A DNA stretch of 64,000 nucleotides from Spirochaetia bacterium (GCA_009885955.1 VFJS01000003.1:147086-211085), one strand, 5' to 3'. Counted from the first letter of the stretch, positions 913 to 58,651 are shown. Program-made: numbers and translations. Notes: a model not told the origin generated them from the letters alone.

Positions 913-1537
913 CATACGGGCATACCTTTTTGACTTTGACGGGACCCTTGTGGATACCATGCAGGGTTTTGCCGATATTGCCGCTGAAACAATTCACCGG
1001 TTCCATCCTGAAATGAGTTTTGAAACGGCAGGGAGGAGATACCTTGAAACATCGGGTGCACCTTTTTTCCAGCAGCTTGAGATACTGTTTCCCGGTGCCG
1101 GTAATAACGGTGATATCGCGGCAATCTTCGAGGAGACCAAGAAGGATGGATTTTTCAGGTCCTCCTTTTCTGAAGATGTGAGGCAGACAATCGGGACAAT
1201 ACGGTCCCGCGGGCAGATCGCCGGAATTGCCTCGAATAATTTTCAGGAGCTCGTCGACCGCTTTGTTGAAAGGGAGGGACTGGCCTTCGACATTGTCCTC
1301 GGGTACAGGGACGGATTTGAAAAAGGGAAAGACCACTTCAGCCATGTAATGGAGAAATTCAGGCTCGATAAGGAGGAGCTTGTTTTTATAGGAGACTCTT
1401 TAAAAGATGCAGAAAAGGCCTTCCACTTCGGCATCGGATTCATAGGGATATGCGGTACTTTCCAAAGGGAGGATTTTATGAAAATCAGAGACGGTATTGT
1501 TACGGTGAATAATATAAAGGAGATACTCTATCTATGA
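905..1537 (+). CDS. HAD-superfamily hydrolase (phosphatase/beta-phosphoglucomutase-like)
   Basis: N-terminal motif I 'YLFDFDGTLVDT' (DxDGT). Start overlaps the upstream stop by 8 nt, suggesting an operon. Confidence 0.8.
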   Translation: MSSIRAYLFDFDGTLVDTMQGFADIAAETIHRFHPEMSFETAGRRYLETSGAPFFQQLEILFPGAGNNGDIAAIFEETKKDGFFRSSFSEDVRQTIGTIRSRGQIAGIASNNFQELVDRFVEREGLAFDIVLGYRDGFEKGKDHFSHVMEKFRLDKEELVFIGDSLKDAEKAFHFGIGFIGICGTFQREDFMKIRDGIVTVNNIKEILYL

Positions 1538-2274
1538 AAGCAGTTGTTCTTGCGGCAGGTACCGGGAGCAGGCTCGGTGAAATTACCAGGGCCAGGACCA
1601 AGGGGATGGTTCCGGTACAGGGAAGGAAATTGATCGATTATCTCCTCGATTTTTTCGGGACAGATTTTTTTGATGAGATTCTTGTGGTAGGGGGTTTCTG
1701 CTATGAGGACCTGAGAGACCACATAACCGGAAGGGGGCAGGGGAACGTCAGGGTGATCCATAACAGCGAATACCTGAAGGGCAATATTTATACCCTGTTT
1801 ACCGCGCTGAAGGAATTTTCCGGGGAATCCTTTCTTATGACAAACGTAGACCACATCTATCCCCGGATCATGTTTGAGAAAATGAAAAAGTCCTTTTCCC
1901 GCATAACTGCCATGTGCGATTTTGACCGGAGCCTCACCGGCGACGACATGAAGGTGAAGCTGAGGAAGCATGGCAGAAGCATAGATACAATCAGCAAGGA
2001 GCTCCATGATTTCGATTGCGGGTATATAGGCATGACCTATGTGGACCAGGAGTTTGATAACACCTACCGCAATGCAGCGCAGGCGGCCCTCAGCCGTTAC
2101 GGGGAAAAGGCCGTTGTTGAGAACATACTTCAGATACTTGCAGCGGAGAGCGACGAGGTGCCTGCAATATGCGACCTTTCGGGCTTCGGGTGGTACGAGG
2201 TTGATAACATGGAGGATTTACAGAAGGCCGAGGAAGGCCTGGCAGCGGACCGGAATTTTAATTTTGACATATAA
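1534..2274 (+). CDS. Sugar-phosphate/choline-phosphate nucleotidyltransferase (NTP_transferase family, LicC-like)
   Basis: N-terminus 'MKAVVLAAGTGSRLGEIT...KGMVPV' is the classic nucleotidyltransferase G-loop. 4-nt ATGA overlap with the HAD gene. Confidence 0.75.
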   Translation: MKAVVLAAGTGSRLGEITRARTKGMVPVQGRKLIDYLLDFFGTDFFDEILVVGGFCYEDLRDHITGRGQGNVRVIHNSEYLKGNIYTLFTALKEFSGESFLMTNVDHIYPRIMFEKMKKSFSRITAMCDFDRSLTGDDMKVKLRKHGRSIDTISKELHDFDCGYIGMTYVDQEFDNTYRNAAQAALSRYGEKAVVENILQILAAESDEVPAICDLSGFGWYEVDNMEDLQKAEEGLAADRNFNFDI

Positions 2275-7795: not shown

Positions 7796-8134
7796 TCAAA
7801 GTCTGTGATTCGGTATATAGTTCAAAATATCATCAATGGTAATGTCATAATTGGGCATAATTTTTTCACCTTCATGTTTATGATGCGGGAAGGTTATCAC
7901 CTCTTTATGATGCGGTGAATTATCCCATCTTATAATTAAATCACCGTTAACTTTTTGCCAATGATAGGAATATTTTCTATCGAATTCATCTGAAAATTCC
8001 TTGATGAATAATCGGGTATTATTTAATAATTCAGATTCGATTTTTATAAAAAATCCGGTTTTAAAAACCCGGAAGTCCTGAATTGTATATTTTTTAATGA
8101 TTACCGAGGCATTAAGAGATTTGATAATTTCCAT
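7796..8134 (-). CDS. DUF6516/TumE-like small protein (putative toxin of an addiction-type pair)
   Basis: 112 aa with the motif 'RWDNSPHHKEVITFPHHKH'. This resembles the conserved YDNAPHH...FPHHKH signature I recall for the TumE-like family. It overlaps the upstream small gene by 23 nt. Confidence 0.45.
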   Translation of the reverse strand: MEIIKSLNASVIIKKYTIQDFRVFKTGFFIKIESELLNNTRLFIKEFSDEFDRKYSYHWQKVNGDLIIRWDNSPHHKEVITFPHHKHEGEKIMPNYDITIDDILNYIPNHRL

Positions 8135-8378
8135 TGATTATATCTTCTTTTTCTGAAATCAATTCTCTATAACTTTTATCGTATGCTTTCCATTCCATGT
8201 AGTCATCCCATTCGGTATAATTTTCAGTTTTTTCGCTATTTATCAAATTTTCAAATTCTTCAAAAGACATTTTATATTTAGTCTTCATCAAAGCGATTCT
8301 ATCCTCCGCTTTATGCAATTCATACAGGAGATTCATATAAAACAAATCTTTAATGTTATCATTATGTATAATTACCAT
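8112..8378 (-). CDS. Small hypothetical protein, putative partner (antitoxin?) of the TumE-like gene
   Basis: 88-aa acidic protein, co-oriented and overlapping the downstream gene. No recognisable motif. Confidence 0.35.
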   Translation of the reverse strand: MVIIHNDNIKDLFYMNLLYELHKAEDRIALMKTKYKMSFEEFENLINSEKTENYTEWDDYMEWKAYDKSYRELISEKEDIINGNYQIS

Positions 8379-8495
8379 ATTAGAGACCTGCCCGGAATAT
8401 CATATTTTTATATGAAAAAAATTATTATCAATTAATTGTTCTGTCAAGTAAAATATGTTTTTTGGAATCATACCTACTATGACCGCTGCATTTAC

Positions 8496-8568
8496 GGACC
8501 CTTGGTTATTTGCTTATTATGCGGGCTCCGCCCGCAGGGGATGTCCAGGTGAACCTAGATTTGCTAAA
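8496..8568 (+). repeat. Direct repeat copy 2
   Basis: See 7655-7736. Copy 2 lacks the 8-bp internal tandem duplication. Confidence 0.8.
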
Positions 8569-8576
8569 TTAATATA

Positions 8577-8981
8577 TCATTCTATCTTATCAATTAATTT
8601 TTTGATATTTTCCATAAATTTCATTAAATCAGAATAAGACCTGGTTAATTCGCCCTTTGAAAAAACTACAAAATCATCATAATCGCTTTTTGTTCTCAAG
8701 TCATAGGAATTATAAACTATTTCACCAATTTCGTGCGGGACAATGCCGGCCTTTACGAATTCCCTGTTGAACCAGCCGATCAGTTGAAGGTGCTTGGAGG
8801 TTTGGTAATTCTTTTTTAACGCAAACGCCGATAGCAAGTAATAGATACAGTAATATATCCGGTTTGCGGCTGTTTCCAGATAGCCAGTTTTTATTAAGAC
8901 ATCAATTTCAGATATAAGCGCGTCAGCTCTTTTTATGCGATGGGCAATTAAAATACTTTTATCTTCATCACTTAATGTCAT
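8577..8981 (-). CDS. HEPN-domain protein (toxin-like partner of the upstream nucleotidyltransferase)
   Basis: 134-aa all-helical protein. 4-nt ATGA overlap with the MNT gene, the classic HEPN/MNT arrangement. No canonical Rx4-6H motif was seen, so toxicity is uncertain. Confidence 0.6.
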   Translation of the reverse strand: MTLSDEDKSILIAHRIKRADALISEIDVLIKTGYLETAANRIYYCIYYLLSAFALKKNYQTSKHLQLIGWFNREFVKAGIVPHEIGEIVYNSYDLRTKSDYDDFVVFSKGELTRSYSDLMKFMENIKKLIDKIE

Positions 8982-9331
8982 ACGGTAATGCCGCTTTCAA
9001 TGGCCTTTTGAATAAAGGGTTGTTTTCCGCGAATTGTATTAAGCTGGGGTTTCGATATAATTTTTGCGTCAATTATAATATCGTATTTCAAGCTGATATC
9101 ATAACAAATTTTTTTTATATTCGATTCAATAGAAGAGTTAAAGTCTGATAATAATATGATAAGAATATCATAATCTGAATATTCACGGGCAGTTCCGTCA
9201 ATCCTGGATCCGAATAATAAAATATTATCCAGAATGTTTCCAAATGCTTTTAGTAATTCGTTTTTCAGGTCTATTAATAAAATATTATTATCCAATTTTT
9301 TGTTATCCTCGATGATGAATTTCTCTTGCAA
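8978..9331 (-). CDS. Minimal nucleotidyltransferase (MNT/MntA-like antitoxin)
   Basis: 'LLFGSRIDGTAREYSDYDILII' is the GS-x9-DxD polymerase-beta-type NTase motif. Confidence 0.75.
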   Translation of the reverse strand: MQEKFIIEDNKKLDNNILLIDLKNELLKAFGNILDNILLFGSRIDGTAREYSDYDILIILLSDFNSSIESNIKKICYDISLKYDIIIDAKIISKPQLNTIRGKQPFIQKAIESGITV

Positions 9332-9515
9332 TTCCTGTTTTATGCGCTTTCAGCGCCTTTTCGGCGATACTATCAAAGCGATGCTCCTTAATATCTTTTT
9401 CAATCTGCTTGTCCCACTCATCTGAATCATATTTTCTAAACCATTCCCTGAGAGTAGAAAGATCTTTCCGATCAAGCTTTATGATCTCTTGCTCCAATTT
9501 TTGAACTTTTGTCAT
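9303..9515 (-). CDS. Small hypothetical protein (possible addiction-module component)
   Basis: 70-aa charged helical ORF overlapping the MNT start by 29 nt. No motif recognised. Confidence 0.3.
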   Translation of the reverse strand: MTKVQKLEQEIIKLDRKDLSTLREWFRKYDSDEWDKQIEKDIKEHRFDSIAEKALKAHKTGIAREIHHRG

Positions 9516-9804
9516 TATTTTATAGTCTTAAAATTGAATAAATAAATGCTAAATATTAAATAATTATAGTTCAATAATATAAAATTAAAAAAAATACGTC
9601 AATTATTTTAAATGGTGTAAATTGGCAAAGTTCTCTGTTAATATTTAATGATATACAGTAGTTTATGCAAAAGGGTCAAGATTAGCGTCTGATAGGGAAT
9701 GCCTTCTTCCAGCGCTAATTTCCCTAGAACAGCCTGATTCCTGTCTGTAATATTTCTTTTGCAAAGGGATTTTCCCGGTTAAAGTCTTCAGGTAAAAAAA
9801 GGAA

Positions 9805-10200
9805 TTACTTCAAGTTCACTGCCCACTTCCGGATAAATACCGTTATATCCGCCTTGCCAATATCCCCTTTCGTTACTGATAAAACCATTTTCACAAGTTT
9901 ATCCTGTAACACGGTCATATCATATCCATTTGAGATAAGAAATACAAGTGCAGAGGCAACGGCGGTCCGTTTGTTTCCATCGACAAAAGGATGATTTTTA
10001 ACAATATGAAAGAGATATGCCGCAGCAATTTCAAAGAGGTCAGTGTGAAGGAATTCGCCGCCATAGGTGGCAATTGGAATTCCCAGTGCCGATTTAAGCA
10101 ATTCTATATTCCGGATGCCGGGTGAACCTCCATAGCGGGTGACCTGATCTCTATGGATTTCGAGAACTTCAGAAAGACTCAGGAAAGATATCTCTTTCAT
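9805..10200 (-). CDS. doc: Doc/Fic-family toxin (death-on-curing)
   Basis: Fic motif 'HPFVDGNKRTA' (HPFx[DE]GNKR). Confidence 0.85.
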   Translation of the reverse strand: MKEISFLSLSEVLEIHRDQVTRYGGSPGIRNIELLKSALGIPIATYGGEFLHTDLFEIAAAYLFHIVKNHPFVDGNKRTAVASALVFLISNGYDMTVLQDKLVKMVLSVTKGDIGKADITVFIRKWAVNLK

Positions 10201-19987: not shown

Positions 19988-20922
19988 ACGAAAGTCACGC
20001 AACAATACTTATTGTTGATGACGAGGACATTATCAGGTATGCTCTTCAGAAGAAGCTTTCAAGGATAGGATACAATGTCATATCCCTTGAAAAAGCGGAG
20101 GATGTCCTCTATCTTGTTAAAAACGGCGGGCAGAAGATAGACCTCATCATCACCGACATCAAACTCAGGAAGATGGACGGCATAGAACTTCTCAGGCGCA
20201 TCAGGAACCTGGATGATCCCATACCGGTGATGATCATAACCGGGCACGGCAATGTCGAGGATGCCATACGGGCTCTCCGTTTCGGGGCCAGCGATTTCAT
20301 TAGAAAGCCCTTTGACATTAACGAGATAGCATCATCGGTGAGGGCCATACTCCGGAGCAGGGATGAGAAGGAGCTGGCCGATAATTTTTCCCAGTATGCC
20401 GACTTTGAAAAAGCTGAATTCAGGATACCGCCCGATATATCTATTATTAATCCGCTGGCATACAGGCTCACGAGAAATCTTGTGGCATCAGGCCTGTGCA
20501 ACAATAATACTTCTGAAAACTTATCCCTTGCCCTTGTAGAGGCTATCAGCAACGCCATGTATCACGGGACCCTTGAGATTTCATCGGATATCAGGGAGGA
20601 AGGGGGAATAAAAAAATTTAATGAAGAAGTGGAGCGCAGGAAAAATGACAGCGCCTACATGAACCGTTTTATAAAAATAAGCTACCACCTCACAAAGGAA
20701 TATGTTGAATACATCATCGAAGACGAGGGCCCGGGCTTTAATTACCATTCACTGCCGGATCCCAGGGACCCTGAAAATTTTTTCAAGGAGAGCGGCAGGG
20801 GGCTCCTTATCATCAGGATCCACATGGATGAAGTTGAATGGGTCGGCAGGGGGAACATCGTGAGGCTGAAAAAGAATAAAATAGAGAGGAACGGTATAAA
20901 GTACCAGGAGGAGATATTATGA
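19984..20922 (+). CDS. Response-regulator receiver fused to an RsbW/SpoIIAB-like HATPase_c_2 (anti-sigma factor-type Ser/Thr kinase) domain
   Basis: REC: '[14 protein letters not shown]...[17 protein letters not shown]'. C-terminal '[12 protein letters not shown]...[18 protein letters not shown]' is a GHKL ATPase of the partner-switching kinase type. It is translationally coupled (ATGA overlaps) to both ribBA and mtnA. Confidence 0.7.
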
Positions 20923-21950
20923 TGTCAATAAAGTGGAATGGAGATTCTGTTAAAATTCTCGACCAGAGGAGGCTTCCTCTTGAAGAGGCATACAACACAT
21001 ATACCAACTACTATGACGTTGCCTCTTCCATACGGGACATGGAGATACGGGGCGCTCCGGCCATCGGAATTGCGGCCGCCATGGGGATAGCCCTTGCCGC
21101 GAAAAGTATGATTGGCGGCAGGGCCGAAGAATTCAGGGAAAAGATGAATTCTGTTTTTACCCTTTTTGCCGGTACCAGGCCCACGGCGGTGAACCTGTTC
21201 TGGGCCATAAACAGGATGAGGGGAATAATTAAAGACAGGTCCGATGTTCCGGGAATGGTTGATCTCCTGGAAAAGGAGGCCATAAAGATGTATGATGAGG
21301 ATATAGATATCAACAGGAGGATCGGCAAAAACGGCAGCAGGTTCCTTAACGATGGGGATGTTGTCATGACACACTGCAACGCAGGAGCCCTTGCCACGGC
21401 CGGATACGGCACTGCCCTTGGAGTCATACGGGCAGCGGTTGAGGAGGGGAAAAAAATCGAGGTCTATGCCTGTGAAACCAGGCCCTATCTTCAGGGCGCC
21501 AGGCTGACGGCATGGGAACTCTTACAGGATAATATTCCGGTGACGCTCATAACAGACAGCATGTCCGGCTATTTCATGAAGTCCGGCGTGATAAAGAAGG
21601 TCATCGTCGGGGCGGACAGGATAGCGGCCAACGGCGACACAGCAAACAAGATCGGGACATACACCCATTCGGTTCTTGCAAAAAACCACCGTATTCCATT
21701 TTACATAGCGGCTCCGCTGTCGACGCTGGATGCAGATACGCCGTCAGGGGACAGTATACCGATTGAAGAGAGGAGCATGGACGAAGTGGTGTACATAGGG
21801 TCATATCAGATCGCTCCCGAGGGGATTTCTGTCCGGAACCCGGCATTTGATGTCACGCCTGCGGCCAATATTACCGCAATCATCACCGAGGCCGGCGTCA
21901 TTGAGAATCCGGGGAGGGACGGAATTTCAGCTGTTCTAAAGAAGAAGTGA
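20919..21950 (+). CDS. mtnA: S-methyl-5-thioribose-1-phosphate isomerase (eIF-2B alpha/beta/delta-like)
   Basis: 'IRGAPAIGIAAAMGIALAA', 'GTRPTAVNLFWAI', 'TDSMSGYFM', 'VGADRIAANGDTANKIGTY' are typical of MtnA/e2B2-family isomerases. Confidence 0.75.
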   Translation: MMSIKWNGDSVKILDQRRLPLEEAYNTYTNYYDVASSIRDMEIRGAPAIGIAAAMGIALAAKSMIGGRAEEFREKMNSVFTLFAGTRPTAVNLFWAINRMRGIIKDRSDVPGMVDLLEKEAIKMYDEDIDINRRIGKNGSRFLNDGDVVMTHCNAGALATAGYGTALGVIRAAVEEGKKIEVYACETRPYLQGARLTAWELLQDNIPVTLITDSMSGYFMKSGVIKKVIVGADRIAANGDTANKIGTYTHSVLAKNHRIPFYIAAPLSTLDADTPSGDSIPIEERSMDEVVYIGSYQIAPEGISVRNPAFDVTPAANITAIITEAGVIENPGRDGISAVLKKK

Positions 21951-23535: not shown

Positions 23536-24615
23536 ATGGTTGAAAAGAGTTCATATTTCGCAATAAGGAACGATAAAAAAATGAAGGTCATTTTCTTTGT
23601 CCTTTTTTTTATCATAACAGCCGGCATACTTTATATTTTCCAATATTTTTTCTGGCCATTTCTCTTCGCCCTGATCCTTTATATTGCTTTGAGGCCGGTT
23701 CAGGAAAAGCTCCTTGCCCATATGAGAAACAGGACATTGAGTACTATTGCAGTAATCGTAATTTTATTTATAATAATTATTGTCCCGTTTTTTTATCTGG
23801 TTATGAACCTCGCCAACCAGAGCTACCAGCTCTATAATATCATCCAGGAGAAGGTGGAGAAGGGCGATTTCAATGACATCGGGATAATTAAACAGGCAAT
23901 GGAATATTTCCAGATCCATAGCACCAATCTCATAAAAAAGGCGGCTGAATTTCTGGAGAAAACGGCTGTCACCGCATTCATGAACCTGACAAAACTGATA
24001 TCTTTCCAGATAAGTTTTACCATGAATTTTCTTTTCATGATTATGATCCTCTTCTTCCTCCTGAAAGACGGGCACAGGCTTGGAGGAGCTTTTTACAGAA
24101 TACTCCCTTTCCCCGACGATATTGAAAAGAAGATCGTTCTGAGGCTCAAAGATGTCATAAAGGTGCTTCTTGCCGGTAACCTTATCATCATGTCCCTCCA
24201 GGGCCTGGGCCTGGGCCTGGGATTTTTCTTAGCCGGCATTGACATGCCTCTTCTATGGGGGAGCTTTGCTGCTGTCCTGTCGCTCATCCCTGTTGTGGGG
24301 ACTACGCTCATCTGGCTCCCCGGCGCACTCTATCTTTTTTTCAAGGGTTATTATATAAGCGCCATATTTGTCGGGATCTGGTCAATGTTGTGGTACCTCC
24401 TTCTGGAAAATATCGTAAAACCTAAGATTTTCGGCAGGAGACTCAACTTTCATCCCATGGTTTTCTTTTTTCTTATTCTCGGAAGCATACAGGCTTTCGG
24501 CATCGCGGGGGTCATCGTCGGCCCGCTGCTCCTGACCCTGTTCTTCTCCTTATGGGAAATTTACAAGTTCATCAATGAATATGAGCTTATGGAGAAGGAT
24601 GAGGGGAGAAGATGA
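23536..24615 (+). CDS. AI-2E family transporter (PerM/YhhT, UPF0118)
   Basis: 8 TM helices. Characteristic 'FFWPFLFALILYIALRP', C-terminal conserved 'GIAGVIVGPLL'. Confidence 0.8.
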   Translation: MVEKSSYFAIRNDKKMKVIFFVLFFIITAGILYIFQYFFWPFLFALILYIALRPVQEKLLAHMRNRTLSTIAVIVILFIIIIVPFFYLVMNLANQSYQLYNIIQEKVEKGDFNDIGIIKQAMEYFQIHSTNLIKKAAEFLEKTAVTAFMNLTKLISFQISFTMNFLFMIMILFFLLKDGHRLGGAFYRILPFPDDIEKKIVLRLKDVIKVLLAGNLIIMSLQGLGLGLGFFLAGIDMPLLWGSFAAVLSLIPVVGTTLIWLPGALYLFFKGYYISAIFVGIWSMLWYLLLENIVKPKIFGRRLNFHPMVFFFLILGSIQAFGIAGVIVGPLLLTLFFSLWEIYKFINEYELMEKDEGRR

Positions 24616-24643
24616 ACGCCGGGATTTTTCTGGAGGATTTTTG

Positions 24644-27625
24644 ATGACTATTACCCGGAGGGATTTCCTTAAAATCACCGGACTGGCATCAACCGCCGCG
24701 CTCTTCGGGAGCCCGTTGCTTTTTACCCGCTGCACGGGTAAAAAGGGGAGGAGCGGCAGTTCCAGCGGGACTTCAGGCATATGCCCCCTGTGCAGCGCAG
24801 GATGCGGGATAGTTGTTTCGGTAAAGGACGGGAGGATCTCAGGGATTGACGGGGACCCGGAACATCCGTTGAACAGGGGAATGCTCTGCGCCGCAGGGAG
24901 TTCCATGTCCGGCCTTTATCAGCCCTCATTTACCGCGCGCATAACCAGGCCGCTTTATAGAAAGCCGGGCGCCGATGCATGGGAGGAGATCACCTGGGAC
25001 GAGGCTTTGAAAAAGATTGCCGACAGGTTTATCAAAACCAGGGAACTCTCACTGCAGAAGATAAAAAAGGACCAGGCGGTCCCTGCATCCATGGATATAG
25101 CCCTTCTCACCGGCGAGGGCCTTAACAACGAGGAATCCTACCTGATTTCAAAATTTGCCGCCCTTACGGGCATAAGCAGGCGTGACCATGAAGGGAGGCT
25201 CGACGATTTTCCATCGAAAACCGCGCTCATGAACAGCCTGGGTTATGGCGGCATGACAAATACATGGCACGACATTTCCAGGTCCAATGCGCTGCTTATA
25301 ATAGGGAGTAACCCGGCCCTTAACCACCCGATGGCCATGAGGCACATCATGGCGGCAAAAGAGAAAGGCTGTAAAATAATTTGCGCAGACCCGCGCTTCA
25401 CCGGGACTGCTGCCGTTTCTGACTATCATATTCCCATCCGGCCGGGCACCGATACGGCTTTTATCCTGGGAATAATAAACCATGCCCTTGGCAGCGGCAG
25501 GGTGAACAGGGAGTATCTTGCAAATTATACAAATGCCCCTTATCTTGTAAACAGCGGTTTCTCGCTGAAAGACGGGCTGTTTTCAGGATATAACAGGGAG
25601 GACAGGGAGTACGACAGCACTACGTGGAGCTATGTCATAGACGCGAAGGGCATCCCGAGAAAGGACCGCGCCATGAACGGGCCCGACACGGTATATCAGC
25701 TGCTGAAAAAACATGCCGCGCGTTATACGCCCGACAGGGTGTCGGAGATAACCGGCTGCCCGAGGGATCTGTTTATCAGCGCCGCGGAAGTTTTTACATC
25801 AACATTCAGCAATGAAAATTCCGGCGCGGTGGTATGCGGAAGGGGGATATTCCAGCATTCAACCGGGACACAGGGGACGAGGGCGCTGATCATACTTCAG
25901 CTCCTTCTCGGCAACATAGGCAGGCCCGGCGGGGGCATCTCTCCCCTGCCTTCGGGGGGAGGCGGGCAGGGCGCCTTTGACCAGGGCCTGTACAGCGGTA
26001 TTCTTCCGGGCTGCCTGCAGGCGCCCGATATTTACAGCGACTCAAACCTTACGGCATACCTGAAAAACAGGACCCCGAAGAGCAATGATCCAATGAGCAT
26101 AAACTGGTTAGGCGCTGACCCGGGAGGCAAGGGCGCGCCTAATACCAGGAGGTACATTGTGAGCCTCCTGAAAGCATGGTTCGGGGGAAATGCCACAGCT
26201 GGAAATAATTTCTGCTATGACTGGCTGCCCAAAAGGGACGATTCCTTCACGTATCCCGCGGTATTCAGGGAGGCGCAGATGGGGAGCATAAAGGGCCTCA
26301 TGCTCTTTCACACTGATCCCCTGGCGCTGCTGCCGAACCAGGGAAAGGCGCTTGATTCTTTGAAAAATCTTGAATGGCTGGTCTGCGCAGATACCTCTGA
26401 GCCGGAAATATCCTCATTCTGGAAGAGGGACGGGATACATCCCAAAGATGTGAAGACCGAGGTATTCCTGCTTCCCATGGCGCTCCCACTGGAAAAGGAC
26501 GGGAGCCTTACGGATGCAGCCAGGACAGTGCAGTGGAGCAGCGGGGCCGTGAGCCCTGCAGGCATGGCCATTTCAGCGCTTGAATATGTGGACAGGCTTT
26601 TTATGCACATAAGAAAAAATCCGGCGATGAACACCGGTGAGTTCCCGGAGCCCATTGCCAGGGCGGAGTGGAATTATAGAGATGCATCACGGGGAGAAGG
26701 GGCAAATCCCCTTGCGGTAGCCAGGGAGATAAACGGGTATTTTACCGGCAGCGGGAAATTTCTCGGCGGCTTCAATTCCCTTGAGCCCGATGGTACTACA
26801 GCCTGCGGCAACTGGCTCTACAGCGGATGCATGGCTTCCGGTGAAAACATGATGACCCGCAGGGATTCCCGGCAGCCTGGCAGTTCCGGAATATTTCCCG
26901 GGTGGGCATGGTCGTGGCCCCAGAACAGACGCATCCTCTACAACAGGGCAGGGACAGACGTGAAAGGGGAACCCTGGGATAAAAAAAAGTACAGTGTCAA
27001 CTGGGACGGGAAAAACTGGACAGGGGATGTACCCGACGGCGACGGGGAACCGGGTGTTAAAAATCCTTTTATCATGCTCGATGAGGGAGTGGCAAGAATT
27101 TTCTGCAGCGCCATGGGAGACGGCCCATTCCCGGAATATTATGAGCCCATGGAGGGGCCTCTGAAGAATATCATGAATTCCGCCGGTTTCAACCCCATTG
27201 GCGTCGCGGCAAAGGAAATGAAAAACAGCGCCGGCAGCACAGAAAAATTTCCCCATGCGGCAACTACATTCAGCTCTGGCCCGGGAGGGAAGCTCCTCAA
27301 TTCCCTGCAGCGCGCCAGGGAGATGTTTCCGCTGATATATTGCGAAATCAGTCCGGGGCTTGCCGCCATGAAGGGGATTGAAAGCGGCGACATGGTTAAA
27401 ATAATATCACGGCGCGGTGCAATTTCAATGAGGGCCCTTGTAACCGCGAGGGTGTTTCCCTGGGAATACAGGGACAGGAAAATTGAACTCGTAGCTATTG
27501 TCGATTTCTGCAATACTGGCGGACCTTCAGGGCTTGCGCATATTTTTACCGATCCTGTCAGCGGCGCGCCTGAATCCAAGGCCTTTCTTGTTAATGTTGA
27601 AAAGGTCAGGGAAAGGAGGGTATAA
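24644..27625 (+). CDS. Tat-exported molybdopterin oxidoreductase catalytic subunit, FdnG/FdhA (formate dehydrogenase alpha)-like
   Basis: Twin-arginine signal 'TRRDFLKITGLASTAALFG' and FeS motif 'CPLCSAGCG...C'. Collinear similarity to E. coli FdnG across the length (LFSGYNREDREYDSTTWSY, WAWSWPQNRRILYNRAGTDVKGEPWD, SKAFLVNVEK). Start set at ATG 24644 after a GGAGG RBS. At the position aligned to Sec-His there is Asp-Asp, with no in-frame TGA. Confidence 0.85.
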   Translation: MTITRRDFLKITGLASTAALFGSPLLFTRCTGKKGRSGSSSGTSGICPLCSAGCGIVVSVKDGRISGIDGDPEHPLNRGMLCAAGSSMSGLYQPSFTARITRPLYRKPGADAWEEITWDEALKKIADRFIKTRELSLQKIKKDQAVPASMDIALLTGEGLNNEESYLISKFAALTGISRRDHEGRLDDFPSKTALMNSLGYGGMTNTWHDISRSNALLIIGSNPALNHPMAMRHIMAAKEKGCKIICADPRFTGTAAVSDYHIPIRPGTDTAFILGIINHALGSGRVNREYLANYTNAPYLVNSGFSLKDGLFSGYNREDREYDSTTWSYVIDAKGIPRKDRAMNGPDTVYQLLKKHAARYTPDRVSEITGCPRDLFISAAEVFTSTFSNENSGAVVCGRGIFQHSTGTQGTRALIILQLLLGNIGRPGGGISPLPSGGGGQGAFDQGLYSGILPGCLQAPDIYSDSNLTAYLKNRTPKSNDPMSINWLGADPGGKGAPNTRRYIVSLLKAWFGGNATAGNNFCYDWLPKRDDSFTYPAVFREAQMGSIKGLMLFHTDPLALLPNQGKALDSLKNLEWLVCADTSEPEISSFWKRDGIHPKDVKTEVFLLPMALPLEKDGSLTDAARTVQWSSGAVSPAGMAISALEYVDRLFMHIRKNPAMNTGEFPEPIARAEWNYRDASRGEGANPLAVAREINGYFTGSGKFLGGFNSLEPDGTTACGNWLYSGCMASGENMMTRRDSRQPGSSGIFPGWAWSWPQNRRILYNRAGTDVKGEPWDKKKYSVNWDGKNWTGDVPDGDGEPGVKNPFIMLDEGVARIFCSAMGDGPFPEYYEPMEGPLKNIMNSAGFNPIGVAAKEMKNSAGSTEKFPHAATTFSSGPGGKLLNSLQRAREMFPLIYCEISPGLAAMKGIESGDMVKIISRRGAISMRALVTARVFPWEYRDRKIELVAIVDFCNTGGPSGLAHIFTDPVSGAPESKAFLVNVEKVRERRV

Positions 27626-27627
27626 TA

Positions 27628-28320
27628 ATGCCTGATAAGGCATTTTTTGTGGATACAACAAAGTGCACCGGATGCAGGTCATGCCAGTCTGCGTGCAAGG
27701 AGTGGAACAGCCTTCCTGGCGAAGCAGTAGATTTTTTCCAGGGGCCCGAAATTACCGGCCCCGGGAAACTGTCTGCGATTACATGGAACCATGTGGTCTT
27801 TTATCCATTTGTGAGGAATATCCCCGGGCGGGACAGCTGGAATATTGTCCATAAAAAGTGCAACCACTGCAAAAAGGCGAAATGTATTGATGTCTGCCCG
27901 GTAAAGGCAATATCAACAGTGGACGGCTGGAATATCATAGACCAGGAAAGATGCATCGGCTGCGGGAAATGCGCTGAGGAATGCCCGTATAAAGTGCCCA
28001 TGGTGAGCATAATATCCCATGATGACAATTCCGGGAAAAAAGTAATTTCAAAGGACAGGGCATATAAATGCAATGCCTGCACCGTCAATACCAGGGATAT
28101 CCCTGCCTGTGTCGGGGCCTGTATAACCGGGGCACTGGATTTCGGATACAGGCTGAAAATCATCAAGGAAGCTGATTTGCATCTGAAAAGAGTGGTAAAA
28201 AATCATCCCGATGCAAGTATTTACGGGATCAGGGAGTTCGGCGGCCTCAGGGTCATCACCCTTTTAAAAGATAAACCGGAAAAATACATGCTCCCGGCCG
28301 GTTATCAGTCCCTGGATTAA
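27628..28320 (+). CDS. 4Fe-4S ferredoxin-type electron-transfer subunit (FdnH/FdhB-like), lacking a C-terminal membrane anchor
   Basis: Four Cys clusters (CTGCRSCQSAC, CNHCKKAKCIDVCP, CIGCGKCAEECP, CNACTV...CVGAC). 230 aa, 2 nt downstream of the alpha subunit. Confidence 0.85.
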   Translation: MPDKAFFVDTTKCTGCRSCQSACKEWNSLPGEAVDFFQGPEITGPGKLSAITWNHVVFYPFVRNIPGRDSWNIVHKKCNHCKKAKCIDVCPVKAISTVDGWNIIDQERCIGCGKCAEECPYKVPMVSIISHDDNSGKKVISKDRAYKCNACTVNTRDIPACVGACITGALDFGYRLKIIKEADLHLKRVVKNHPDASIYGIREFGGLRVITLLKDKPEKYMLPAGYQSLD

Positions 28321-28619
28321 GAGAGTATAAAAAATATTCAATTTTAACTATCCATCCCCGATAATATATGTAGGGGCTTTTTTTGGTGAATAAAAACAGC
28401 GGCCTGATTTTTAAAAGGGTGTTTATATTTTACTTGACGCATATTATTTTAAGTATAATATTAAGGCCGGTACAAAAAATAAGGTTTTTATAATTTGCTT
28501 TGGGGTTTTTTAAGTAAAAACCGGTATTTTCCCATTTCAATTAATTGAAAAATACCGGTTTTTGTGATAGCCCTTAAAAACTGCCGGATAAAATCTGGAA
28601 TTATAACAAGGATGTAAGA

Positions 28620-29852
28620 ATGAAAAACTGGTCGATTTCAGGCGCTTCCATTTTAACGGCTGATTCAAAAATTGATGAAGGGAGTATCCTCATCAATAAG
28701 GATAAAATTGAGAAAGTATCACCCGGGAAGAAGCTGGAAGGGGAAATTTCTATAAATATGGATAATTCCATCATAGTGCCGGGTCTCATCAACAGCCATG
28801 ACCACCTCCTCGGGACCTACTATCCAAAGGTGGGGAACGGCCCTTATGAAAACTGGCTCCCCTGGGACAATGATCTGAAAAGCTCCCCTGTTTACAGGGA
28901 GAGGCAGCAGATTGAGAGCCGCGATCTCTACCTCCTTGGCGGTTACCGGAACCTTATCTCCGGTGTAACCACGGTCTCCGACCATATTCCGCATTTTGTG
29001 GGACAGCCGTTTTACAGCATGCTTCCCATGAAGGCCATATCGAAATATGCGCTTGCCCATTCCATCGGCTCTTTTGCCCTTGCCTGGGGCGATGGCGTTG
29101 AAGCAGAATATAAAAAGGCCCTGAAAGAGGATATTCCTTTTATCACACATATTTCAGAGGGATTTGACGAGGAAACGATAAACGCAATCAGGACAATAGA
29201 TAAATCGGGCGGCCTGGGAGATCATTCTGTTTTAGTCCATGGTATTGCCTTTTCAGAGTCCGACATGAATCTGATAAAGGTGAGAAAGGCCTCTGTTGTC
29301 TGGTGCGCCGATTCAAACTGGTTCATGTTCAATGAGACAACGAATATTAAGATGCTCCTGGACAAGGGAATAAATGTCTGCATCGGAACCGACTCCCCCA
29401 TGTCCGGCGGGCTCAACATTTTAAGTGAGATAAAATTTGACAAGTCCCTCTATGAAGAGATATACGGTGAGGAGCTTTCCGATAAGACAATTTTCAGGAT
29501 GATAACCGATAATCCCGCCAGGGCATTCAGGTTCAAAAACCTCGGGCAGATTAAAGAAAATTTTCAGGCTGATTTTGTGATTTTCAGATACCGGGAGAGT
29601 ACTGCCTACCGCTCAGTGATAAATGCTGAGATGGAGGACATCCTCCTTGTTGTCATAGACGGCAAACCTGTCTACGGGGCCTCGGATTTCTCTGAATTAT
29701 TTGATTATTTTAAAATAGAATACCAGGAGATTACATTAAAAGGCTCGAAAAAAATAATTATAGGCGACCTGATTGGCCTTTTACGCAGAATTAGCAGGGC
29801 GGTTGGTTTTAAGAAAGAATTTCCATTTATTCCAGTTGATTTTGATTTTTAA
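28620..29852 (+). CDS. Amidohydrolase-superfamily metal-dependent hydrolase (deaminase/chlorohydrolase-like)
   Basis: N-terminal metal-binding 'VPGLINSHDHL' (HxH). Also 'CIGTDSP' and 'HGIAFSE' conserved residues of the TIM-barrel amidohydrolases. Confidence 0.7.
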   Translation: MKNWSISGASILTADSKIDEGSILINKDKIEKVSPGKKLEGEISINMDNSIIVPGLINSHDHLLGTYYPKVGNGPYENWLPWDNDLKSSPVYRERQQIESRDLYLLGGYRNLISGVTTVSDHIPHFVGQPFYSMLPMKAISKYALAHSIGSFALAWGDGVEAEYKKALKEDIPFITHISEGFDEETINAIRTIDKSGGLGDHSVLVHGIAFSESDMNLIKVRKASVVWCADSNWFMFNETTNIKMLLDKGINVCIGTDSPMSGGLNILSEIKFDKSLYEEIYGEELSDKTIFRMITDNPARAFRFKNLGQIKENFQADFVIFRYRESTAYRSVINAEMEDILLVVIDGKPVYGASDFSELFDYFKIEYQEITLKGSKKIIIGDLIGLLRRISRAVGFKKEFPFIPVDFDF

Positions 29853-31800: not shown

Positions 31801-31874
31801 GCTCCCGTAGCTCAGGTGGATAGAGCAGTAGTTTCCTAAACTATGTGCCAGAGGTTCGAGTCCTCTCGGGAGCG
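31801..31874 (+). tRNA. tRNA-Arg (anticodon CCT)
   Basis: Cloverleaf folded by hand. Acceptor GCTCCCG/CGGGAGC, D-arm GCTC-AGGTGGATA-GAGC, anticodon stem GTAGT/ACTAT with loop TTCCTAA, T-arm AGAGG-TTCGAGT-CCTCT. Confidence 0.85.
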
Positions 31875-34125: not shown

Positions 34126-35454
34126 ATGAATATTTTTTTTCAACAGCTCAGAAAATTTTCCACGTTTATATATATCCTTATTGCCCTTTTCATCGGCGCA
34201 GTCATTTTTAATTTTAATTTCAGATGGGAGGGAGTATCAATAATCCTCAGGATTTATCTTTTCATTTTTGCTTTCTATATAATTTATACCTTTTCAATGA
34301 TGGACATTGACGGGCTTAAGGCAAAGTACCATGACATGTACGGCCGGAAGGGGATTTTTATACTGTTTTCCCAGGCCAGGGTCTTTCCGTTTCTTTTTAT
34401 TTATTTCACCATAATAATCCTTACATTTATCAATTATATCGGATCCCCTGACTGGCCTGCGGAGCCGATCTTAAATATTCTTAACGGGAGATATTCCAAT
34501 ACGCTTATCTATTCGCTGATCCTGCTTCTGATCCTCAATATGAAGAAGAGCCCCAGGGTAACGGTACCCATGTTTTTGATATTCGCTGTTTTATATTTCA
34601 TTCTTTATAAGGTGGTCTATTTCTATTCCCCGGCCGGAATTCTGACGACGTTGCTTAAAATTCTTAATTTCATCATAGTCATTTTTATTCTCCTGTTCGA
34701 ATTTTTTTATGACAGGAGCAATCTCCTGAAGATTTCAATTCATACGGTCAGTATTGCCCTGGCGCTGCATTTTATTGTCGTGGGCTGTTTATACTCCATA
34801 AACAGGTATTCTAAACCGGCTTCCTATGGAGAGGTCAGGTCCTCAACTTTTCTGCTGAAAATGGGCTTTTCCTTTCCACTGGTGAAGCTCAGGAATGCGA
34901 TTATCAAACATTCGAAATTCCAGCTGATACATCACCTCATATACTATTCCAGGAAATACAACAGAGAGATTGATTTCAGCATAGAGGAGTGGGAGGATCT
35001 TATGTTTTCCGGAACGGTTCAGAGGACAGACCTGATATCCATGTACCTCCTGGACAAGATAAAGAGCGTTTCATATAAAAGCCTCATTGCTTTCGCGGAG
35101 ATGAATTCCAGGACCTCTGGAGAGGAGCTCATAAACGCCGGGCGTTTCATCAAATATTCCTCGAAGTATTTTGAGGAATTCATGGATGATTTTTTTGCAA
35201 GGTATAAAAGGCATAATTTCCATTTCAAGATCTGGGTGCTCAAAGTAATTGGAGATGCCGAGGTGGTAAAGTCAATACCATTCCTCATTGACAAACTTAC
35301 CGATCTTAACCTGAGCATCTCAGAGGAGGCTTTCAGGTCCATTGCAAAGATTACAAAGATGGATGCTGCAAAGAAGTACGGCATTAAGATAAATTCTCCT
35401 GCAGTGGTCAGGGCATATAAGGAGTATTACCAAATGCTTCGCAAAGATGACTGA
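34126..35454 (+). CDS. Polytopic membrane protein with C-terminal HEAT-like repeat region
   Basis: At least 7 hydrophobic helices in the first 220 aa. The C-terminal soluble domain has HEAT/PBS-lyase-like repeats (VIGDAEVVKSIPFLIDKLTDLN...). Confidence 0.5.
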   Translation: MNIFFQQLRKFSTFIYILIALFIGAVIFNFNFRWEGVSIILRIYLFIFAFYIIYTFSMMDIDGLKAKYHDMYGRKGIFILFSQARVFPFLFIYFTIIILTFINYIGSPDWPAEPILNILNGRYSNTLIYSLILLLILNMKKSPRVTVPMFLIFAVLYFILYKVVYFYSPAGILTTLLKILNFIIVIFILLFEFFYDRSNLLKISIHTVSIALALHFIVVGCLYSINRYSKPASYGEVRSSTFLLKMGFSFPLVKLRNAIIKHSKFQLIHHLIYYSRKYNREIDFSIEEWEDLMFSGTVQRTDLISMYLLDKIKSVSYKSLIAFAEMNSRTSGEELINAGRFIKYSSKYFEEFMDDFFARYKRHNFHFKIWVLKVIGDAEVVKSIPFLIDKLTDLNLSISEEAFRSIAKITKMDAAKKYGIKINSPAVVRAYKEYYQMLRKDD

Positions 35455-42814: not shown

Positions 42815-42886
42815 GCGCCTGTAGCTCAAAGGATAGAGCACTGGTCTCCGGAACCAGGTGTGCAGGTTCAATTCCTGCCAGGCGCA
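42815..42886 (+). tRNA. tRNA-Arg (anticodon CCG)
   Basis: Acceptor GCGCCTG/CAGGCGC, D-arm GCTC-AAAGGATA-GAGC, anticodon stem CTGGT/ACCAG with loop CTCCGGA, T-arm GCAGG-TTCAATT-CCTGC, discriminator A. Confidence 0.85.
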
Positions 42887-58123: not shown

Positions 58124-58651
58124 ATGAGAATCAAATCATGTTTGCTTGTCGCTGCTTTTATTGCGGGAATGAGTGGGAATCTAATGGCTTATGAAGATAT
58201 TCAACATCATCCGAAGTGCAAATATTCCGGGATGGACAGGGAGAAATTCGCCCATAGCAGAATTCTCGTGGTATATGACGATGGGTCGTCTGTGGGGACC
58301 GGAAGCCTCAGGTGCGCTTCAATCGATCTGGCAATCAATTTTACCAGGAAAGTCAAATCCATGAAAGCCGGCGACTATAAGACAAAGAACCTTATTGATG
58401 CCGGGAAAGCGTACTGGGTAATCGGAGGTAAGGTAAAAGGGGTGATGACAAAAAATCCCAAGTGGGCATTTGAAAAAAAAGAGGATGCCCAGGCCTTCAT
58501 TAATGAAAATGGAGGGACTCTTACCTCCTTTGACACAGCATTAAAGACCACATATAATGATATGATGAGCGACACCTCCTATCTTCATGATATGATGAAA
58601 GGAATGAAGGGCAATAATGGCGGTCATGGAGATTCACACCATGGTCATTGA
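58124..58651 (+). CDS. NosL-family-like copper-binding protein with His-rich C-terminal tail
   Basis: Matches P. stutzeri NosL recalled from memory: 'LIDAGKAYWVIGGKVKGVMT...FEKKEDAQAFINENGGTLTSFDTALK' versus NosL 'LIDATSAYYVVGTSLKGAMG...FAEEQDAKALAGMHGGRVLRFEEIDQALL'. His-rich end 'GGHGDSHHGH'. The N-terminal CxxC of NosL is reduced to a single Cys. Confidence 0.5.
   Translation: MRIKSCLLVAAFIAGMSGNLMAYEDIQHHPKCKYSGMDREKFAHSRILVVYDDGSSVGTGSLRCASIDLAINFTRKVKSMKAGDYKTKNLIDAGKAYWVIGGKVKGVMTKNPKWAFEKKEDAQAFINENGGTLTSFDTALKTTYNDMMSDTSYLHDMMKGMKGNNGGHGDSHHGH

Follow-up and report, generated by a model that had tools for sequence, protein, structure and literature searches.

The closest described relatives of the gene pair considered here are the periplasmic formate dehydrogenases (FDHs) of Desulfovibrio (Nitratidesulfovibrio) vulgaris (FdhAB; 6SDR, 8CM4) and D. 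gigas (1H0H), two-subunit enzymes that are exported by the twin-arginine translocation (Tat) pathway, do without a membrane subunit, and join an alpha subunit carrying the [4Fe-4S] cluster FS0 to a multi-[4Fe-4S] beta subunit. In the alpha subunit of D. vulgaris (DvFdhA), selenocysteine (Sec) 192 is followed by His193, the conserved second-sphere histidine next to the ligand; Arg441 is the catalytic arginine; Val197, Tyr403, Met405, Thr408, Arg441, Glu443 and Thr450 line the active or retention site; and Gln890 neighbours the molybdopterin guanine dinucleotide MGD2 (PMC13532692). Escherichia coli FdnGHI (1KQF) has the Sec/His/Arg set as well, together with a transmembrane anchor on its beta subunit and the cytochrome b FdnI, and uncultured Spirochaetota encode Sec- or Cys-containing FdhAB pairs with the same two-gene layout. 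Here we analyse a related pair at positions 24,644 to 28,320 of a 64,000-nucleotide stretch of DNA from a Spirochaetia bacterium (GCA_009885955.1, VFJS01000003.1:147086-211085; hereafter the window). The pair shares the architecture of the Desulfovibrio enzymes but has lost the residues of the formate-oxidising site, and we consider it probable, at roughly 0.6, that it represents a catalytically degenerate alpha-beta module of FDH origin, retained for a role unrelated to formate.

The alpha subunit lies in the open frame 24575..27625 (+) and likely starts at the ATG at 24644, which has a GGAGG Shine-Dalgarno sequence 7 nt upstream; the resulting protein of 993 aa (24644..27625, +) begins MTITRRDFLK and has the FdnG/FdhA-type molybdopterin-oxidoreductase fold, with its catalytic residues lost. 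A Tat motif, TRRDFLK (24653..24673, +), is kept in all orthologues, the Pfam TAT_signal match itself being weak (18 bits), and is followed by an intact FS0 motif, C47-x2-C50-x3-C54 ... C82 (24782..24889, +; Pfam Molybdop_Fe4S4, 53 bits), whose four cysteines are present in canonical enzymes and in every non-Cys orthologue. The Pfam domains Molybdopterin and Molydop_binding complete the protein, and the NCBIfam model for FDH-N alpha, TIGR01553, matches it over profile positions 2-1009 with 838 bits, just over the cutoff of 814.2. In a phmmer search of all PDB sequences, D. vulgaris FdhA is matched end to end (E = 3e-198) and E. coli FdnG with E = 3e-189; similarity to the Desulfovibrio proteins extends over the full length at about 36% identity. 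An AlphaFold2 (AF2) model (mean predicted local distance difference test, pLDDT, 88.5; predicted template-modelling score, pTM, 0.91) superposes on both 1kqf_A (E. coli FdnG) and DvFdhA with a template-modelling (TM) score of 0.91. The models of type II (NarG-like) enzymes lie far away, TIGR03479 scoring 104 against a cutoff of 985, EbdA 47 against 2000 and NarG 22.6 against 1084, and Foldseek gives TM scores of 0.52-0.56 to PcrA and EbdA.

Two bases beyond the alpha frame, the second frame (27628..28320, +) encodes a beta subunit of 230 aa with 16 cysteines in four groups for [4Fe-4S] clusters, all 16 of which are invariant among the relatives compared. It is FdnH/HybA-like, yet its 94 bits against TIGR01582 (FdnH) fall far under the cutoff of 335; unlike the E. 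coli system, it is not membrane-anchored, and a cytochrome b gene is absent downstream. The original prediction of a Tat-targeted alpha subunit of the FdnG/FdhA clade, equipped with an FS0 motif and paired with an anchorless beta subunit, is borne out by these matches and motifs. A possible weak terminator, a CCCC...GGGG hairpin followed by C and T7, can be read from the sequence downstream of beta (28356..28384, +), although a consensus terminator scan made no call after beta, this hairpin included. The G+C content at third codon positions (GC3) of the alpha gene is 0.63, as in ribBA, mtnA and prfA; recent horizontal transfer, considered in view of the higher GC at 24-28 kb, was rejected, as neighbouring housekeeping genes have an equal GC3 and synteny at the locus is maintained across genomes.

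It is in the catalytic site that the alpha subunit departs from its relatives. The phmmer alignment is ungapped across this stretch and sets 'dhegrlddfpskt' over 'ehqarixhsptvp', so that Asp187 falls on Sec192 and Asp188 on His193, and independent MAFFT alignments of 41 and then about 100 homologues return the identical register. The two aspartates (GAC GAT; 25202..25207, +) thus stand where the Sec/Cys metal ligand and the catalytic histidine would be, and no in-frame TGA is present; both points had been claimed before, the first on the basis of counting between anchors, and, of the alignment checks that had been proposed, HMMER and MAFFT alike place the same Asp there. The losses extend well beyond this pair. 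PLPSGGGGQG stands in place of ALRGESNVQG (25943..25972, +), with Pro436 at the position of the catalytic Arg441 and a run of glycines for Glu443, Ser, Asn and Val. Immediately after the fourth FS0 cysteine, an ungapped alignment puts Ala84 (24893..24895, +) at the conserved lysine of LCxKG, which we take to be the FS0-to-pterin electron relay, a role that a literature look-up did not confirm. The start of domain IV, with its pterin-binding motif, is degenerate, reading 'TTFSSG---PGGKLLNS' for 'TTYRxxEHWQxGxMTRN' (27263..27304, +); the segment includes the Gln890 position, which is deleted, and pLDDT there drops to 64-77. Of the 110 profile positions of Molydop_binding, the window protein matches only 29-71, with 33 bits; the degenerate proteins score 31-37 bits on the middle of the profile only, whereas canonical relatives reach 55-67 bits and are matched over 2-109. 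Among the positions that surround the retention site and MGD2 in DvFdhA, Val197 is replaced by Lys, Thr450 by Phe, Glu443 by Gly and Met405 by Arg. Two further residues were considered as substitutes for the lost Cys or Arg, Cys398 at the place of Tyr403 and Arg400 at that of Met405, and both were rejected, since the orthologues vary there (C/C/F/F/F and R/G/S/S/A). The dinucleotide-binding (Rossmann-type) motifs of domains II and III are mostly kept (GSNPA.N.P, DPRFT, RPGTD, WLV..D).

Whether the Asp-Asp pair marks a new active site can be judged from the proteins that occupy the same place in other genomes. P0002 (locus L162), P0010 (L163) and P0122 (L166) have the gene order of the window around them, namely ribBA, response regulator, mtnA, GGDEF (minus strand), AI-2E family transporter, alpha, beta, amidohydrolase, a cyclic-nucleotide-binding tetratricopeptide-repeat protein (cNMP/TPR), Crp, prfA and prmC, and P0123 (L167) has AI-2E, alpha and beta in common with the window; all four are positional orthologues. 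At the Sec/His/Arg/Lys positions, where the window protein reads D / D / P / A, they read S / S / S / K (P0002), Y / S / G / G (P0010), Y / S / G / R (P0122) and G / D / N / K (P0123). The search for the same Asp-Asp pair in orthologues, which had been proposed as a check, is therefore negative (S-S, Y-S, Y-S, G-D), and the suggestion that the Asp is a NarG-like Mo ligand finds no support, the orthologues being different and the catalytic Arg and the LCxKG Lys lost or variable. The S/Y/Y/G series at the ligand position and the low type II scores both argue against placing the alpha subunit in the Asp-ligated type II clade. The related suggestion of an FDH-like enzyme with another substrate stands in one half, as the protein is very unlikely to be a conventional FDH, and is unsupported in the other, no new conserved active-site constellation being found across the five orthologues.

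The same locus also holds an intact enzyme. In an ADurb.Bin218-like spirochaete (L083, L082, L001), an FdhA with TGA(Sec)-CAC(His)-Arg and its FdhB are flanked by an AI-2E gene on the 5' side and by an amidohydrolase (66% identity), cNMP/TPR, Crp (75%) and prfA (68%) on the 3' side, and the window alpha therefore descends in place from a selenocysteine FDH. The Sec/Cys FdhAB pairs of uncultured Spirochaetota in this neighbourhood, such as those of the ADurb.Bin218-like loci L001, L083, L004, L006 and L018, keep TGA or Cys with His, Arg and Lys, a lipobox behind the Tat signal, and the C-terminal tail of beta, none of which the window has. In the window, the AI-2E family transporter gene (23536..24615, +; Pfam PF01594, 162 bits) ends 28 nt before alpha; such a gene lies 5' of alpha in L162, L163, L166 and L167 and 5' of the Sec-fdhA in L004, L006, L018 and L083. 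The gap measures 25-50 nt in the degenerate loci, with 164 nt in L167, which suggests that the AI-2E gene and alpha are co-transcribed there, and a functional link between the AI-2E protein and the FdhAB-like pair is possible. FDH accessory or partner genes (fdhD/E, cytochromes, molybdenum cofactor (Moco) or Sec genes) were found near neither the degenerate nor the canonical loci, and since the canonical loci lack them too, their absence at the degenerate ones is uninformative. An NTP_transf_3 match at window 1534-2274, 'MobA-like' by similarity, was rejected as a Moco gene, being a generic nucleotidyltransferase beside a HAD hydrolase.

By sequence, the protein is a singleton. Its best match among 5.8 billion proteins has 46% identity, and no closer relative was found in these proteins, in GTDB representative genomes, in JGI metagenomes or among 1.84 billion cluster representatives searched with a clade profile; none of the closest relatives returned from these four collections has the D-D pair. 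An exact look-up of P0001 gave no record, and the sole identical copy, Logan contig L081, matches window 14600-36121 at 100% and comes from the same genome. The closest canonical relatives, at 42-45% identity, belong to uncultured Spirochaetota; these are Sec/Cys FdhAs, and an in-frame TGA occurs in many of them. In a neighbour-joining (NJ) tree, all non-Cys forms group together with 100% bootstrap and join the spirochaete Sec/Cys FdhAs with 99%; the non-Cys forms include a sister group in which the pair is Ser-His, Ser-Asn, Ser-Tyr or Pro-Asn, plus a Lys-Lys form. This topology suggests that the thiol/selenol ligand was lost once, in an ancestor, and that erosion then took divergent courses.

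The conservation of sites speaks for relaxed constraint. Taking as reference 77 canonical enzymes and the 177-178 alignment columns that are at least 95% conserved among them, canonical proteins keep on average 175.6 of 178 (98.7%), the window protein 138-139 (78%) and its orthologues 68-82%. Across the five orthologues, 96 of 177 conserved columns are kept by all, 79 are variable, and a single one is fixed for a new residue (Asn558->Asp). Pairs of canonical spirochaete FdhAs are 69-84% identical and their betas 57-98%; the degenerate orthologue alphas are 44-45% identical to each other, with 51-57% for betas and 52-86% for neighbouring genes. The non-synonymous divergence (dN) of alpha, 0.51, is the highest of 11 syntenic genes, and alpha is evolving faster than its surroundings. 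Synonymous divergence (dS) is saturated between the window and its nearest orthologue, and the ratio dN/dS (omega) was accordingly taken from the pair L163 and L166, at 73% identity, for which it amounts to 0.11-0.15 in alpha, 0.08-0.12 in beta and 0.09-0.14 in the AI-2E gene. Five lineages have unbroken reading frames of about 1000 aa. With open frames, a full set of FeS cysteines, a preserved Tat motif and a dN/dS of about 0.11-0.15 in the close pair, the alpha and beta genes are not pseudogenes, and purifying selection on them continues.

Both ends of the module show further peculiarities in the window copy. The 15 relatives of the beta subunit, which come from L002-L018, L083 and L162-L166 and include partners of canonical and of non-Cys alphas, all end in a conserved tail of about 40 aa, in which basic residues accompany a short hydrophobic stretch (consensus ..Y.LLS.FTFGLP.LKR.AYRIS..); this tail is missing from the C-terminus of the window beta, and no remnant of it is visible 3' of the stop codon at 28318-28320. 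At the other end, canonical and degenerate spirochaete FdhAs carry a lipobox-like L-x-G-C after the Tat signal (LLEGC, LLTGC, FLGGC, LITGC), as seen when the alpha N-termini of L004, L083, L162, L163, L166 and L167 are compared with window 24644-24790, which suggests that they are Tat-exported lipoproteins. The window alpha has 'LLFTRC' at this place, with no fit to the lipobox.

The explanation that we favour is that this FdhAB-type, Tat-exported periplasmic pair, descended in place from a selenocysteine FDH of Spirochaetota, has lost the formate-oxidising site (Sec/Cys, His, Arg and the LCxKG Lys to Asp, Asp, Pro and Ala, with erosion of the pterin-proximal motif of domain IV), while the MopB fold, FS0, the Tat signal and the FeS chain of beta have stayed under selection. 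The data suggest that the ligand went from Sec to Cys and then to Ser, the state of the sister group N2, before becoming D, Y or G. The Asp-Asp pair would then be a lineage-specific occupant of a site that is no longer selected for metal ligation, and no conserved ligand pair; because the orthologues carry different residues there, it is best read as a leftover of a dismantled site. With Sec/Cys, His and Arg all gone, FDH activity is presumably absent, and the retained role would be non-catalytic or at least not formate-related. Most likely, the alpha subunit would serve as a Tat carrier and scaffold for the FeS electron-transfer subunit, much like the MopB-derived subunits OmeA, NuoG and QrcB of other complexes; beta has no signal peptide of its own.

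Several considerations weigh against this explanation. An omega of about 0.1 on a protein of 1000 aa is strong for a mere scaffold, and an FeS wire without a catalytic entry needs another donor or acceptor, none of which is encoded nearby. The motifs of domains II and III are largely kept and the Pfam thresholds for both cofactor domains are passed, so that binding of a bis-molybdopterin guanine dinucleotide cofactor (bis-MGD), and hence some catalysis, may persist; arsenite oxidase is an enzyme with Mo bound by two pyranopterin guanine dinucleotides (Mo-bisPGD) that works without a protein ligand. Finally, the phylogeny is by NJ only, and long branches are prone to attraction artefacts.

These points are taken up most directly by the idea that the AI-2E-linked non-Cys clade binds Mo/W-bisPGD without a protein ligand, or without an essential one, and carries out some other periplasmic redox reaction, electrons passing through FS0 and the beta clusters, with arsenite oxidase as the parallel. 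Purifying selection on alpha comparable to that on neighbouring genes, the retained dinucleotide motifs, a complete FeS chain, the two cofactor domains above threshold and a sister group, N2, that retains Ser-His and often Arg speak for it. However, the pocket residues at the Val197, Tyr403, Met405, Thr408, Arg441, Glu443 and Thr450 positions vary in every orthologue, and a shared substrate is therefore hard to reconcile with the sequences; the LCxKG lysine is unconserved (A/K/G/R/K), deletion or scrambling has affected the domain-IV motifs that flank the pterins, and the score of Molydop_binding is down by half. We regard this alternative as unlikely, though it deserves to be kept in mind. 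A broader variant holds that the non-Cys FdhAB-like proteins form a functional family with an undescribed periplasmic redox task, performed either with a Mo/W-bisPGD whose ligand is not fixed or with the FeS chain only; the AI-2E-family membrane protein would possibly be its partner, and Asp187 could be a metal ligand in this one lineage. From the sequences at hand, such a family seems rather improbable.

It might also be supposed that the window pair has lost all function and is decaying into a pseudogene in this one genome. Three losses are unique to the window copy (Lys84 to Ala, the C-terminal tail of beta, and the lipobox turned into 'FTRC'), and alpha is the fastest-evolving gene of the neighbourhood. 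Yet both frames are intact over 3.7 kb, with a good Shine-Dalgarno sequence, native GC3, 20 of 20 FeS cysteines and the Tat motif; with dS saturated, a neutrally evolving sequence would carry stop codons by now, and the orthologues evolve under an omega of about 0.1, all of which makes decay a highly doubtful account. Least probable is a new FDH-clade enzyme for a non-formate substrate in which Asp187 ligates Mo/W as in NarG-type enzymes and Asp188 replaces the histidine: Asp does ligate Mo elsewhere in the superfamily (NarG-type), it stands at the ligand position in a robust alignment, and an intact fold, FS0, beta clusters and Tat signal go with it, but D-D occurs in no positional orthologue and in none of the closest relatives retrieved, the wider non-Cys clade has K-K, P-N, S-H, S-N and S-Y instead, Arg441, the LCxKG Lys and the domain-IV pterin motif went with no new conserved residue set in their place, and NarG-like similarity is far under threshold.

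Other branches of FdnG-like proteins also carry unusual residues at the Sec/His positions: S/D-Q in P0037, P0046, P0050 and P0088, C-V in P0041, P0048, P0061 and P0097, C-Q in P0087 and P0095, and the single forms C-C (P0125), K-K (P0128), N-C (L095) and G-P (P0119). Some of these sites are conserved within their clades, Cys-Val going with 'GIAGAVNGLG' and Ser-Gln with 'AISVEANGQG'. If a re-tooled enzyme is sought, clades of this kind, with conserved odd Sec/His/Arg sites, may be more promising than the window protein.

The amidohydrolase 3' of beta (28620-29852) best matches 5'-deoxyadenosine/methylthioadenosine-type deaminases, below cutoffs, and shares a conserved block with mtnA (methylthioribose-1-phosphate isomerase, 20919-21950); it is probably linked to methionine/S-adenosylmethionine salvage rather than to the FdhAB-like genes. 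In L162 (14166-16671; GCA_024276015.1), the amidohydrolase is split into 311 + 83 aa and the cNMP/TPR gene into 218 + 160 aa, reflecting either frameshifts in the metagenome assembly or real pseudogenisation. A 442-aa protein with no Pfam domain (34126-35454, +) follows prmC here as it does in L162 and L163, and with 45-51% identity and a dN of 0.49 it evolves about as quickly as the degenerate alpha. Genes for tRNAs lie at 31801-31874 and 42815-42886 (+), the first between the Crp-family regulator and prfA, and a NosL-domain protein, from the copper chaperone family of nitrous oxide reductase systems, is encoded at 58124-58651 (+), with no nosZ among the window frames examined. Farther upstream, a low-GC island (about 0.32; 7796-10200, minus strand) contains small genes that resemble stacked toxin-antitoxin modules: a TumE toxin (7796-8134) and its 88-aa partner (8112-8378), a HEPN (8577-8981) and MNT nucleotidyltransferase (8978-9331) pair, and a Fic/Doc gene (9805-10200).

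FDH-like proteins without Sec or Cys are already known, and the window protein is not new in kind. What is new is a distinct clade of spirochaete proteins that has lost the whole catalytic triad and whose residue at the ligand position changes from one orthologue to the next, with the Sec-containing ancestral type at the same locus in a relative; a literature search found no account of these spirochaete proteins, nor of an Asp-ligated enzyme in the FDH clade. The locus is also an annotation trap. Since the alpha subunit passes the NCBIfam cutoff, it is labelled automatically as 'formate dehydrogenase-N subunit alpha', and in metabolic reconstructions these spirochaetes of anaerobic digesters would be assigned formate oxidation or CO2 reduction, of which this protein is almost certainly incapable. 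Should it be true, on the other hand, that the clade binds the cofactor and is active, it would bring a new type of reaction into the FDH branch.

Among described proteins, a precedent for a degenerate module of this kind is OmeA, the FDH-like complex iron-sulfur molybdoenzyme (CISM) of Dehalococcoides, which has Ser for Sec/Cys and is predicted to lack FDH activity (PMC5736913), and which is retained and expressed as part of an FeS electron-transfer complex, its Mo cofactor being unconfirmed (PMC5736913, PMC6005880). As in the window, OmeA of the organohalide-respiration complex of Dehalococcoides and Dehalogenimonas is FdnG-like, with Sec/Cys replaced and FeS partners at its side. It differs in belonging to Chloroflexi, in its OmeB membrane anchor and HupX, and in having no adjacent FdnH-type gene, and no OmeB- or NrfD-like gene adjoins the alpha gene here. 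By description, OmeA has a conserved Ser, whereas in the window clade the position is variable and His and Arg are lost too. More distantly, the C-terminal domain of NuoG/Nqo3, QrcB and ActB keep the MopB fold without catalysis, as scaffolds beside FeS subunits, and NuoG keeps a relic FS0-type cluster. The window alpha scores 93 against 440 bits with the QrcB model and 61 against 470 with that of NuoG, and these are distant relatives only; NuoG, QrcB and ActB sit in large membrane complexes, whereas the window pair has no evident membrane partner except, speculatively, the product of the adjacent AI-2E gene. With a Sec enzyme and its stripped descendants at one locus, the spirochaete genes provide a natural series for the dismantling of a Mo/W enzyme, one that bears on the origin of subunits of the OmeA, NuoG and QrcB type.

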